Source: Escherichia coli (GTDB lineage: Bacteria; Pseudomonadota; Gammaproteobacteria; Enterobacterales; Enterobacteriaceae). From it: 64,000 bases of DNA. The DNA lies in assembly GCF_017348835.2 (NCBI RefSeq), contig NZ_CP072315.1; one strand, written 5' to 3'. A program made the position numbers. Positions 6,001 through 9,000 of this stretch are shown one piece after another; position 1 is the stretch's first letter, and each line of letters opens with the position of its first letter.

Positions 6001-9000
6001 AGATCAGTGGTGGGATGAACGAGACTTTGCAGTAATTGATCCCGACAACAATTTGATTAGCTTTTTTCAACAAATAAAAAGCTAAAATCTATTATTAATC
6101 TGTTCAGCAATCGGGCGCGATTGCTGAATAAAAGATACGAGAGACCTCTCTTGTATCTTTTTTATTTTGAGTGGTTTTGTCCGTTACACTAGAAAACCGA
6201 AAGACAATAAAAATTTTATTCTTGCTGAGTCTGGCTTTCGGTAAGCTAGACAAAACGGACAAAATAAAAATCTAAATATGCTTGAACAACTTGTAACTTA
6301 AATTCATAACTGTATTTTGCCATAAAAAATGACCTCCCATAAGTTAGATTTTTGGTCTAACTTATGGGGGTCAGTTCATTCTACACTTGGGCTGCATGTT
6401 TTGATTAATTATCTAATATCTCCGGATCTCCTGTAAAGGAATATAAAACTGCCTGCATGTTTTTCAAATAAAATACGGTGAATTTCCCATCATCAGCGCT
6501 ATACCAATCTCTCAAATGCGGATTTGCTTCAAGCATTGCTTCCCTTGCTTCCACGGTATCATCAATTACGGCTTCGCCGGTGAGCCGAATCCATTTTCCT
6601 TTTGCCATACCTGAGACTTCCACCTTTGAATTTGCCAATAACTGCTGATAAACTTTTTTCTGATTGGTTGTACCAAGATAGACCTTGCCATTCCTCTCCA
6701 TGGCTGCATTAAACGGTCTGACCCTTGGCTGGTCTCCTTCAACGGTTGCAAAATAAAAAGTTTTTGCTTCATTTAAAAAATCAACAACTTGACTCATCCT
6801 TTTTTACCTCCATAAATAAATTTTTCTTTACTTTTCTTTGACCTAAATTCCACGTGCATTTTTTATTAGCTTAAAAGAACACTATTTCACGAAGAATTTA
6901 AACTGATACTCCCACATTGTAACATTATTTACCACCACCTTTCAATCTTTTTCAATAAATTATTGATTGCAACTTTTGAGTAAAGATACTTATTAAACCC
7001 TGCAAGTTATCCACAGAGCAACACTCGATTTTCAAGATGATATCTTTATTACACCAGACATTTTTCATACACTTCCTTGGGCACTGTTGCAAAGTTAGCG
7101 ATGAGGCAGCCTTTTGTCTTATTCAAAGGCCTTACATTTCAAAAACTCTGCTTACCAGGCGCATTTCGCCCAGGGGATCACCATAATAAAATGCTGAGGC
7201 CTGGCCTTTGCGTAGTGCACGCATCACCTCAATACCTTTGATGGTGGCGTAAGCCGTCTTCATGGATTTAAATCCCAGCGTGGCGTTGATTATCCGTTTC
7301 AGTTTGCCATGATCGCATTCAATCACGTTGTTCCGGTACTTAATCTGTCGGTGTTCAACGTCAGACGGGCACCGGCCTTCGCGTTTGAGCAGAGCAAGCG
7401 CGCGACCATAGGCGGGCGCTTTATCCGTGTTGATGAATCGTGGGATCTGCCACTTCTTCACGTTGTTGAGGATTTTACCCAGAAACCGGTATGCAGCTTT
7501 GCTGTTACGACGGGAGGAGAGATAAAAATCGACAGTGCGGCCCCGGCTGTCGACGGCCCGGTACAGATACGCCCAGCGGCCATTGACCTTCACGTAGGTT
7601 TCATCCATGTGCCACGGGCAAAGATCGGAAGGGTTACGCCAGTACCAGCGCAGCCGTTTTTCCATTTCAGGCGCATAACGCTGAACCCAGCGGTAAATCG
7701 TGGAGTGATCGACATTCACTCCGCGTTCAGCCAGCATCTCCTGCAGCTCACGGTAACTGATGCCGTATTTGCAGTACCAGCGTACGGCCCACAGAATGAT
7801 GTCACGCTGAAAATGCCGGCCTTTGAATGGGTTCATGTGCAGCTCCATCAGCAAAAGGGGATGATAAGTTTATCACCACCGACTATTTGCAACAGTGCCC
7901 AAACGCGAAGGCCGGTGCCCGTCTGACGTTGAACACCGACAGATTAAGTACCGGAACAACGTGATTGAATGCGATCATGGCAAACTGAAACGGATAATCG
8001 GCGCCACGCTGGGATTTAAATCCATGAAGACGGCTTACGCCACCATCAAAGGTATTGAGGTGATGCGTGCACTACGCAAAGGCCAGGCCTCAGCATTTTA
8101 TTATGGTGATCCCCTGGGCGAAATGCGCCTGGTAAGCAGAGTTTTTGAAATGTAAGGCCTTTGAATAAGACAAAAGGCTGCCTCATCGCTAACTTTGCAA
8201 CAGTGCCGGCTGAAGGCCGAGCAAGCCTGACAGGCCCGAAAAGCCCGGCACGGGCGTCGGCGGCGATGACGGCGGCGGCATTATCCAGGGTTGATGATGG
8301 AAGTGGAGGATATCGACAACCTCTCGCGCAACCAAGACATCGCGGTCGGACTGCAAGTGATCTTGAAGCCACGGGCCCGTCCCACCCCGACATGGACCTC
8401 GATGCCCGAACGGACGTTAGATTTCGAGTTCTAGGCGTTCTGCGATGAAGGTTGGATCCCAGCCGGGATTGAAAGTGTCGACGTGGGTGAATCCGAGCCG
8501 CTCGTATAGGCCACGCAGGTTCGGGTGGCAGTCGAGCCGCAGCTTGGCGCACCCCTGCGTTCGCGCGGCATGGCGGCAAGCCTCGATCAGCGCGGAGCTG
8601 ACACCCCGGCCCGCATGTGTCCGTCGCACCGCGAGCTTGTGCAGATATGCGGCCTCCCCCTTGAGGGCGTCGGGCCAGAACTCGGGATCCTCGGCCGACA
8701 AGGTGCAACAGCCGACGATGCCGTCGCTGCAACTCGCGACTAGGAGCTCGGATCTCAGGACGAAGGTCTCCGCGAATGTCCGGTCGATCCGCGCGACGTC
8801 CCAGGCGGGCGTTCCCTTGGCGGACATCCACGCCGCAGCGTCGTGCATCAGCCGCACAACCTCGTCGATATCACCCGAGCAGGCGACCCGAACGTTCGGA
8901 GGCTCCTCGCTGTCCATTCGCTCCCCTGGCGCGGTATGAACCGCCGCCTCATAGTGCAGTTTGATCCTGACGAGCCCAGCATGTCTGCGCCCACCTTCGC

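Follow-up and report, generated by a model that had tools for sequence, protein, structure and literature searches.

The window, a stretch of 64,000 nucleotides from an Escherichia coli contig (NZ_CP072315.1), holds a short block between two IS26 copies in which a gene for a 130-aa protein is preceded by the truncated right end of an insertion sequence (Table 1). The original prediction saw here a PNPOx-family gene placed as the cargo of an ISEcp1-like element, and the layout on which it relied was recovered. The ORF is present, and the Pfam model PNPOx_N recognises its product at 8.4e-10; this profile match and the split beta-barrel fold together place it among PNPOx-like split-barrel proteins (Pfam PF01243 clan). 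The distance from the IRR to the ATG is exactly 44 bp, as proposed, and the cut at 7080 is indeed where a complete 820-bp IS26 begins.

Table 1 Features of the IS26-bounded block, with positions in the window.
Feature	Position	Strand	Details
IS26 on other side of bleO-PNPOx block	4739..5557	-	819/820 bp, one gap
bleO and downstream low-GC DNA	5708..6269	+	bleO 5708-6085; joined to truncated cargo at 6269/6270
IS3-family left end (TGAACTGACCCCC...)	6270..6378	-	Part of captured cargo; first 18 orfA codons from 6323
3' flank of cargo gene, presumed native	6379..6404	-	Common to all copies
Cargo gene ('nimC'/'orf63'/'orf')	6405..6797	-	130 aa, split-barrel PNPOx-fold flavoprotein; window allele H94
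Native leader of cargo gene	6798..6841	-	44 bp; RBS GGAGG (6807-6811), 9 nt before ATG
ΔISEnca1	6842..7079	-	Last 238 bp of IS1380-family ISEnca1
Outward promoter (predicted)	6916..6945	-	-35 TTGAAA, 18-nt spacer, TG-extended -10 TACAAT; consensus scan; reads towards ORF
IS26 truncating ISEnca1	7080..7899	+	Complete 820-bp copy

The insertion sequence remnant and the published block

The remnant consists of the last nine tnpA codons and the stop, followed by a non-coding right end of ~208 bp that includes the IRR. An ISEcp1-family right end with about 85% similarity had been claimed, and a gap-free alignment with the window's ISEcp1 right end (46762-46999) gave 207 identical positions of 238 (87%), with the same 14-bp IRR, ACGTGGAATTTAGG (here at 6842-6855), terminating both. 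Comparison within the IS1380 family confirmed the likeness to ISEcp1, and the stretch is 99.2% identical to positions 1419-1656 of the already named ISEnca1, and matching full copies carry the RefSeq label 'IS1380-like element ISEnca1 family transposase'. This identity, together with recurrence of the whole block at ≥99% identity in >400 plasmids, excludes a chance resemblance to the ISEcp1 end.

The capture geometry of ISEcp1 is also preserved, with the ORF abutting the IRR as in ISEcp1-blaCTX-M and the outward promoter retained within the 238 bp. Sequence comparison found the same hexamers and spacing as in the ISEcp1 promoter, and no terminator was predicted between this promoter and the PNPOx ORF. 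An ISEcp1 outward promoter of this type has been tested and drives blaCTX-M (PMC9330008); by its identity to that promoter, the one in ΔISEnca1 is predicted to be active.

Around the gene, the 44-bp leader is unchanged in 16 of 16 compared copies, and its homologue in Konateibacter is the final stretch of the intergenic region between the HxlR and PNPOx genes. The boundary between the 3' flank and the IS3-family end was placed by the TG-initiated terminal sequence of the latter, which contains a terminator-like hairpin (6336-6368). In longer copies the IS3-family end runs on as a 189-aa ORF, whose match is to the N-terminal part of an IS3-family transposase model (5.9e-13). Homology between the window and the transposition units described below stops at 6270.

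In the left-hand IS26, the loss of 1 bp puts tnp26 out of frame and splits the transposase ORF. The adjoining bleO was assigned at 100% by AMRFinder in the identical block of pOLA52, positions 6090-6280 also match many Staphylococcus and Enterococcus plasmids, and we take the ble of this segment to be of pUB110 origin, a Gram-positive plasmid type. In Salmonella pF18S044-1 the same IS26 lies within an otherwise intact ISEnca1, flanked on both sides by the 8-bp duplication CAAGGAAG. The block is bounded by IS26 at both ends, and the pF18S044-1 copy shows the target duplication of the primary insertion.

A block of the form IS26-bleO-orf-ΔISEnca1-IS26 has been published, in pOLA52 and in oqxAB, cfr and mcr-1 plasmids, with the ORF labelled nimC/nimA or orf63 (PMC5645526, PMC7823714, PMC6387526, PMC5501952). 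As ΔTn2-IS26-ble(blmS)-orf/orf63/'nimC'-ΔISEnca1-IS26 it adjoins Tn6010 (oqxAB) in pOLA52, pHNYJC8, pHNEP124 and others. The copy in the window is ≥99.8% identical to the pOLA52-type block and shares its ISEnca1 cut point and bleO junction (PMC5645526, PMC7823714, PMC6387526). It differs by P94H in the protein and in that its right-hand IS26 leads into a partial inverted IS26, where the published block continues into oqxAB. The suggestion of a mobilised gene of unrecognised function holds for mobilisation; the gene had not gone unnoticed. The names 'nimC' and 'orf63' in the plasmid literature are annotation only, and the searchable texts of the block papers contain no discussion of capture, origin or selection of the ORF. 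New here are the mobility of the cargo, its origin in Clostridia with loss of HxlR, the finding that it is not a Nim protein, and the excess of nonsynonymous change in mobile alleles.

The ISEnca1 unit and its source in gut Clostridia

Comparison of related loci demonstrates, at the sequence level, both the structure and the mobility of a unit made of ISEnca1 and the gene, and bears out the reading of the ORF as IS cargo. A full 1656-bp ISEnca1 with a 420-aa transposase is joined to the gene at an identical junction in loci L071-L074 and L076. A metagenome scan for ISEnca1 tnpA together with the exact IRR/gene junction returned six contigs, four of them with the complete 1656-bp IS, and in these four the left flanks differ while the right junction is identical. 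Overall, the same IRR-cargo junction occurs in at least eight contexts with different left flanks, and two junction types exist, which differ in the distance between IRR and ATG (44 bp or 76 bp). The palindrome TATACT-N9-AGTATA, a candidate site for the Clostridia HxlR regulator, is retained in the 76-bp type and absent from the 44-bp type. The unit has three ORFs (transposase, PNPOx gene and IS3-family orfA).

Its right ends vary, lying about 653, 890, 912, 1117 and 1222 bp after the IRR, and IRR-like GGA/T-TTT cores were found at three of these five natural ends (653, 1117 and 1222 bp). The 1222-bp end recurs in a Lactococcus plasmid, in a different flank. Target duplications of 5 bp surround the whole unit in L073 (TAAGA) and L071 (TTATA); no matching duplication was found in L072 or in the S. 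aureus copy. When L071 is stripped of the unit and of one TTATA copy, a 387-aa radical-SAM-like host ORF is restored, which represents the empty site. With IRL, IRR and a DDE transposase, cargo abutting the IRR at different sites, variable right ends and 5-bp duplications, the element behaves as an IS1380-family unit. S. aureus carries a chromosomal copy whose allele is present in 645 contigs, and in Enterococcus plasmids there is a copy that is truncated on both sides. Other cargo of ISEnca1 consists of resistance genes, optrA and aph(3')-III (PMC9535334).

Relatives of the gene were found in gut Clostridia only, and 30 of 44 homologue loci have a divergent HxlR gene ~120 bp upstream. On this distribution, the gene stems from gut Clostridia, where its homologues stand beside a divergent HxlR regulator. 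That regulator and the native promoter are replaced in the mobile unit by the ISEcp1-type outward promoter, which the remnant keeps. Among the relatives searched, none proved to be the true donor species. Ruminococcaceae AM07-15, with a 95% match, was rejected as donor because its copy is itself a mobile remnant, with a 33-bp IRR remnant and the same IS3-family end beside a MobP3 relaxase. A context look-up with the exact protein returned Enterobacterales IS26 contexts only.

We propose that ISEnca1 landed in the short stretch between the divergent HxlR regulator and the 130-aa split-barrel gene in a gut Clostridia donor. The insertion would have severed the gene from its regulator and native promoter and placed it under constitutive control of the IS promoter (TTGAAA-18-TACAAT). 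The transposase may then have repeatedly paired the IRL with IRR-like sequences further downstream (GGA/T-TTT cores), moving units of ~2.3-2.9 kb that comprise the IS, the gene and part of the neighbouring IS3-family element. Such units would have been inserted elsewhere in Clostridia, in a Lactococcus plasmid and in the S. aureus chromosome, and lastly in Enterobacterales plasmids. There, IS26 presumably entered ISEnca1 (giving the 8-bp duplication), and later IS26 events would have produced one IS26-bounded block from the 238-bp stub that bears the promoter, the gene and the pUB110-type bleO fragment.

Allelic variation and possible function

Substitutions in mobile alleles of the ORF are about tenfold more numerous than in the flanks, and nearly all of those in the ORF are nonsynonymous. 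We counted 24 variable columns in 393 bp of the ORF against 2 in 416 bp of the adjacent flanks (p=2.6e-6) and 23 in 2483 bp of the rest of the unit (p=7e-10). The variable columns of the ORF comprise about 24 nonsynonymous and 2 synonymous changes, compared to a divergence from the outgroup of 55 nonsynonymous to 48 synonymous (excess in mobile alleles, p=2e-4). Chromosomal homologues have pN/pS values of 0.04-0.17 in three pairs and the outgroup comparison; the value in a fourth pair, differing at only 6 sites, is 0.50. Taken alone, dN/dS > 1 is marginal (binomial p = 0.07), so the case for selection rests on the contrast with flanks and outgroup. These contrasts suggest that the mobile alleles are under strong diversifying selection, with unusually fast change of the protein.

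Two mutational sources of such variation were rejected. A diversity-generating retroelement or targeted mutagenesis does not fit, with no adenine-specific substitution pattern and no reverse transcriptase among the ORFs of the unit, and gene conversion from a diverged homologue is rejected because synonymous changes are almost absent.

The gene might instead be a neutral passenger of no use to its new hosts, an ordinary housekeeping flavoprotein whose changes reflect relaxed constraint or the blunting of a costly over-expressed protein. Several family-conserved positions, including G30 and F121, are substituted, as attenuation would look, and the block in Enterobacterales travels as a hitch-hiker, flanked by IS26, together with bleO and oqxAB. 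Some Enterobacterales copies are interrupted or partial (IS1 insertions, truncations), which argues against selection in those hosts, and the gene in the window is probably a hitch-hiking relic, carried passively. However, relaxed constraint cannot lift substitution density ~tenfold over that of adjacent non-coding DNA, and the 16 full copies compared contain no nonsense or frameshift allele. Codon 94 has changed to four different residues in four alleles, codons 30, 97 and 98 have been hit repeatedly, and the unit has gone to fixation in an S. aureus lineage of wide distribution and has been re-transposed many times. The S. aureus allele has Y14, D30, P94 and M98, and F94 occurs in metagenome alleles. 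As an explanation for the mobile alleles in general, passive carriage is in our judgement unlikely.

Evidence for a role comes from the protein's fold, its native control of HxlR type, the company of optrA and aph(3')-III on ISEnca1, and the diversifying selection. In Bacillus and Staphylococcus, HxlR/DUF24 regulators derepress quinone, azo and nitro reductases under electrophile stress. By analogy, the native regulator points to quinone, electrophile or nitro detoxification generally. We infer that the protein may be a reductase, dependent on FMN/FAD and expressed constitutively, whose role is to detoxify a livestock antimicrobial of reductively activated or electrophilic type, for which nitroimidazoles, nitrofurans, quinoxaline-di-N-oxides or quinones are candidates. 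The specific drug class is a guess, because the protein did not pass the tests for Nim membership. A literature search found no paper linking HxlR, nitroreductase and metronidazole, and no phenotype for the gene is reported in the searchable literature.

The published labels imply a genuine Nim-type 5-nitroimidazole reductase (nimC/nimA) conferring haem-dependent resistance to metronidazole or dimetridazole. Such proteins share the split-barrel fold, anaerobic donors are targets of nitroimidazoles, and PDB 2IG6, 49% identical to the cargo protein, is deposited as 'NimC/NimA family protein'. Nim resistance arises through an upstream mobile-element promoter or a promoter mutation (PMC9330008, PMC10338468), as in Bacteroides, where nim genes are classically activated by an upstream IS (table in PMC9330008), and in C. 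difficile, where a promoter-up mutation of nimB leads to resistance (PMC10338468). The 'NimC/NimA' name is nevertheless automatic, without an assay behind it. NCBIfam, including its AMR models, gave no Nim match for the protein, and a family profile search retrieved no solved Nim protein at E ≤ 10. The proximal histidine of Nim proteins (His55 in CdNimB, His71 in DrNimA) is needed for haem-dependent activity (PMC10338468), and no counterpart was found among the alleles; most have no histidine at all, and H94 in the window and H92 in L083 are allele-specific. By these sequence tests the cargo protein is not a bona fide Nim protein, and resistance of the haem-dependent Nim type is improbable. 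The Nim-type analogy that had been drawn survives at the level of fold and fails those of sequence and histidine.

Two further assignments were discarded: PADLOC gave no match that would suggest an anti-phage defence role, and the TIGR03618 match, which would suggest an F420-dependent enzyme, is far under the cut-off (E 0.0018, 18.5 bits against 79).

Considered as a whole, the explanation of a Clostridia gene captured by ISEnca1, present as an IS26-truncated remnant, encoding a proposed reductase and passive in the window, seems to us probable. A bolder extension is conceivable, and we offer it tentatively. The gene might encode a drug-modifying flavin reductase that has so far escaped recognition, and be a mobile determinant of resistance or tolerance to a veterinary antimicrobial class activated by redox chemistry (nitro-heterocycles or quinoxaline-di-N-oxides). 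Released from HxlR through ISEnca1, it would have moved out of the gut Clostridia of pigs and poultry to S. aureus, enterococci and Enterobacterales, with an allelic series (codons 14, 30, 94, 97 and 98) evolving under drug selection as TEM and CTX-M did.

Known systems and wider meaning

Capture by ISEcp1 made blaCTX-M global, and a sister element has done likewise here with an uncharacterised gene. The unit crosses the Gram-positive/Gram-negative divide. Livestock-associated plasmids that carry it number in the hundreds, and it is also present in an S. aureus lineage of wide distribution; its gene has lost the native regulator and shows a pattern of adaptive protein change that is rarely seen. 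Should the protein inactivate a drug, pipelines for surveillance miss a resistance gene or mislabel it "nimC". If it inactivates none, a route for mobile DNA from Clostridia to Bacilli to Enterobacterales is still documented, and caution is called for against resistance claims derived from annotation.

The closest parallels are the ISEcp1-blaCTX-M units and the ISPme1 'transposable modules'. They share with the ISEnca1 unit the IS1380 family, the length of 1656 bp and near-identical IRs (PMC9330008). Promoter hexamers and spacing are those of ISEcp1-blaCTX-M, as are cargo that abuts the IRR behind a short spacer, one-ended transposition with the IRL and variable IRR-like ends, 5-bp duplications and later truncation by IS26. 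In contrast, the IS here is a different one, ISEnca1, with about 87-90% identity to ISEcp1 in the comparable part, the donor is a Gram-positive anaerobe, and the cargo is a flavoprotein rather than a beta-lactamase. The unit also spans phyla (Clostridia, Bacilli, Enterobacterales), and insertion of ISEnca1 takes away a dedicated repressor-type regulator as well.

Like the Nim proteins (NimA-K, CdNimB), the cargo protein is a PNPOx-like split-barrel flavoprotein of similar size. Unlike them, it has no detectable sequence relation to solved or curated Nim proteins and lacks the conserved haem-ligand histidine, and it is structurally closer to proteins of the general-stress-protein-26 type. The arrangement of its native homologues, with the HxlR gene divergent and upstream, resembles that of HxlR/DUF24-family systems of the YodB, QsrR and HypR type, whereas the mobile unit has no regulator and would be governed by the IS promoter.

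ISEnca1 remnant and the published block

The original prediction placed an ISEcp1-family right end, cut by IS26, 44 bp upstream of a 130-aa PNPOx-like ORF and read that ORF as cargo. All parts of the observation are correct, as ORF, inverted repeat (IRR), spacing and IS26 were found as described. The right end matches the blaCTX-M-linked ISEcp1 end of the window at 207 of 238 gaplessly aligned positions (87%), the IRR (ACGTGGAATTTAGG) is identical in both, and exactly 44 bp separate it from the ATG, including a GGAGG 9 nt 5' of the start codon. The stretch is not part of ISEcp1 itself: it is 99.2% identical to positions 1419–1656 of ISEnca1 versus 87% for ISEcp1. 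ISEnca1, the name RefSeq gives to full copies, is a different IS1380-family element with the same length as ISEcp1 (1656 bp).

Features of the window and of comparison sequences, with right ends of ISEnca1 units.
Feature	Sequence	Position	Strand	Remark
PNPOx-fold ORF	window	6405..6797	minus	130 aa; Pfam PNPOx_N match 8.4e-10
IRR	window	6842-6855		
ISEnca1 promoter	window	6945..6916		predicted; TTGAAA-18-(TG)TACAAT
ΔISEnca1 right end	window	6842..7079	minus (same strand as ORF, upstream)	gapless alignment to window ISEcp1 end (46762..46999)
IS26, complete	window	7080-7899		bounds ΔISEnca1
IS26, partial	window	7896-8207		312 bp, inverted
IS26 with 1-bp deletion	window	4739-5557		
ISEcp1 remnant	window	46762-47258		497 bp, right end only
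Unit in S. aureus	L076	3269-5609		complete ISEnca1-like element and PNPOx gene
Second junction type	L076	4925-4956		S. aureus
Second junction type	L016	3754-3818		
ISEnca1 copies flanking optrA	L014	5102-5412, 8010-9665		truncated right end and ISEnca1
ISEnca1 copy	L013	3882-6045		left end cut by IS26
Insertion in IS3-family end	L074	2379-3969 (oriented)		1.59 kb
Right end of unit	S. aureus (L076)	~653 bp after IRR		
Right end of unit	L070	~890 bp after IRR		
Right end of unit	L071, L072, L016	~912 bp after IRR		
Right end of unit	L069	1117 bp after IRR		
Right end of unit	L073, Lactococcus plasmid	1222 bp after IRR		flanks different

The block IS26 - bleO - ORF - ΔISEnca1 - IS26 occurs at ≥99% identity in >400 Enterobacterales plasmids, pOLA52 among them, and is in print as ΔTn2-IS26-ble/blmS-orf(orf63)-ΔISEnca1-IS26 (PMC5645526, PMC7823714). 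There the ORF is often named nimC or nimC/nimA and entered, by annotation alone, as a 5-nitroimidazole resistance gene (PMC6387526, PMC5501952, PMC6392093). In Salmonella plasmid pF18S044-1, IS26 lies within an otherwise complete ISEnca1 with an 8-bp duplication (CAAGGAAG), an insertion that explains the 7079/7080 boundary. Plasmids from Enterococcus and Lactococcus retain 105 bp more of ISEnca1, which is cut there by ISEnfa1/IS1216.

Eight complete IS26 copies lie in the window (starting at 4739, 7080, 14801, 18763, 32683, 37917, 43272 and 47259). The first lacks 1 bp that the others have, which splits the transposase frame; the loss may be genuine or a sequencing error. The second overlaps the adjoining partial copy by 4 bp. 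ISEcp1 upstream of blaCTX-M, with 47 bp between its IRR and the start codon of bla, met the same fate as ISEnca1, being a remnant cut by IS26 at 47259.

An analogy with Nim-type split-barrel proteins had also been drawn. The ORF product is a PNPOx-fold flavoprotein; it matched no curated NCBIfam Nim model, and no solved Nim protein matched the family profile at E ≤ 10. Haem-dependent Nim activity is defined by a particular histidine (PMC10338468); this residue is absent from the alleles, most of which contain no histidine at all. Sequence comparison therefore leaves Nim membership, and the literature label, unsupported.

Transposition units and other cargo

A metagenome scan that required a conserved ISEnca1 tnpA 25-mer at a fixed distance from the exact IRR/leader junction returned six contigs. 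Four contain the complete IS (95–96% identical to the Aliarcobacter ISEnca1 copy), with identical IS-ORF junctions and four different left flanks. Downstream of the IRR all the copies have in common the ORF, a short stretch of 3' flank, and an IS3-family left end with its orfA, and then break off at differing points, several of them resembling the IRR core (GATTTTGG, GGATTTCC and GGTATTTG versus GGAATTTAGG). Duplications of 5 bp surround the unit in contigs L073 (TAAGA) and L071 (TTATA), and removal of the unit and one TTATA from L071 restores an unbroken 387-aa radical-SAM-like ORF; no matching duplication was found at L072 or the S. aureus copy. Right ends that vary, together with duplications, mark one-ended transposition in the IS1380 family (PMC9330008), and this shared pattern supports the ORF as cargo of an ISEnca1 transposition unit. 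At the level of sequence, the comparisons show both the structure and the mobility of the unit.

The S. aureus chromosomal unit (L076, also L077-L080) has an enterotoxin-like gene on one side and a truncated methyltransferase on the other. The 645 contigs that carry its protein allele (Y14/D30/P94/M98) suggest that the lineage is widespread. In metagenome contig L074 the captured IS3-family left end is broken 516 bp after the IRR by an insertion that is probably another IS.

ISEnca1 is known to carry optrA and aph(3')-IIIa (PMC9535334). In Aliarcobacter pCNAC48 (L014), optrA is flanked by ISEnca1 copies, so the element is also active in Campylobacterota; aph(3')-IIIa follows a complete copy, and the arrangement is published as Tn7409 (PMC9535334). 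Another ISEnca1 cargo gene is found in E. coli pYSP8-1 (L013), where ISEnca1 lies ~58 bp upstream of a gene for a 215-aa MBL-fold metallo-hydrolase that resembles metallo-beta-lactamases and flavorubredoxin only weakly, below threshold.

Origin and regulation of the cargo gene

In a search of one genome per GTDB species, relatives of the ORF were confined to gut Clostridia. The 95% match in Ruminococcaceae AM07-15 is not a native source but itself a mobile remnant: next to a MobP3 relaxase it retains an IRR stub of 33 bp and the IS3-family end seen in the units. Among ordinary chromosomal homologues, that of Konateibacter massiliensis is the closest (69% aa identity). A divergent HxlR-family regulator lies ~120 bp upstream in 30 of 44 chromosomal loci, and the 44-bp leader has its homologue in the Konateibacter intergenic region, in the part distal to the promoter, indicating that ISEnca1 took the place of the regulator gene and of the native promoter/operator region.

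The predicted promoter retained in the remnant has the same hexamers and spacing as the experimentally validated ISEcp1 promoter (PMC9330008), and no terminator is predicted between it and the ORF. From this identity we infer that the ORF may use the ISEnca1 promoter. A second junction type, in S. aureus and L016, holds 32 more native bp between IRR and leader; these begin TTATACTAATCATATAAGTATACTAAAATAG and contain a palindrome (TATACT-N9-AGTATA), possibly the native HxlR operator. In L016 the IRR is reduced to a 33-bp stub, joined to the opening 16 codons of an AAA-ATPase-like gene.

Protein evolution and proposed function

We compared 16 copies (window, pOLA52, four other Enterobacterales plasmids, Enterococcus, Lactococcus, S. 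aureus, Ruminococcaceae and six metagenome units). The ORF has 26 variable columns in 393 bp, affecting 21 codons, 19 of them nonsynonymously; no site varies in the leader or in the 135 bp downstream, and ~4 do in the 238-bp IS end. In a nine-sequence alignment of the whole unit, 24/393 ORF positions vary versus 2/416 in the adjacent flanks (Fisher p = 2.6e-6) and 23/2483 in the rest of the unit (p = 7e-10). The nonsynonymous to synonymous ratio is ~24:2 among mobile alleles versus 55:48 in divergence from Konateibacter (p = 2e-4). pN/pS is 0.04–0.17 in the Konateibacter comparison and three of four chromosomal homologue pairs; the fourth pair (0.50) differs at 6 sites only. Hot spots are codons 94 (F, P, L or H), 30 (G, N or D), 97 (D, E or V), 98 (W or M) and 14 (F, Y or C), and G30 and F121, ≥90% conserved in the wider family, vary in mobile alleles. 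Gene conversion is argued against by the near absence of synonymous changes. Relaxed constraint cannot account for a substitution excess that is tenfold over neighbouring non-coding DNA, and the pattern is not DGR-like. Given the contrasts with flanks and Konateibacter, the cargo protein is probably under adaptive or diversifying evolution, the test for dN/dS > 1 alone being marginal (p = 0.07).

HxlR/DUF24-type regulators in Bacilli govern quinone, azo and nitro reductases. On five lines of evidence, the putative function of the cargo would be to detoxify a redox-activated or electrophilic antimicrobial: its flavin-reductase fold, native HxlR/DUF24-type control, predicted constitutive expression after capture, the company of resistance genes among ISEnca1 cargo (optrA, aph(3')-IIIa), and livestock-associated hosts together with diversifying selection. 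In Enterobacterales, where IS1-disrupted and truncated copies occur, the gene is probably a passenger.

The block and its ORF are already known from the plasmid literature; the origin of the gene, the loss of its regulator, the cross-phylum units and the signature of selection seem to have gone undescribed in the searchable literature. Together they present an IS1380-family transposition unit whose cargo merits a phenotype test.
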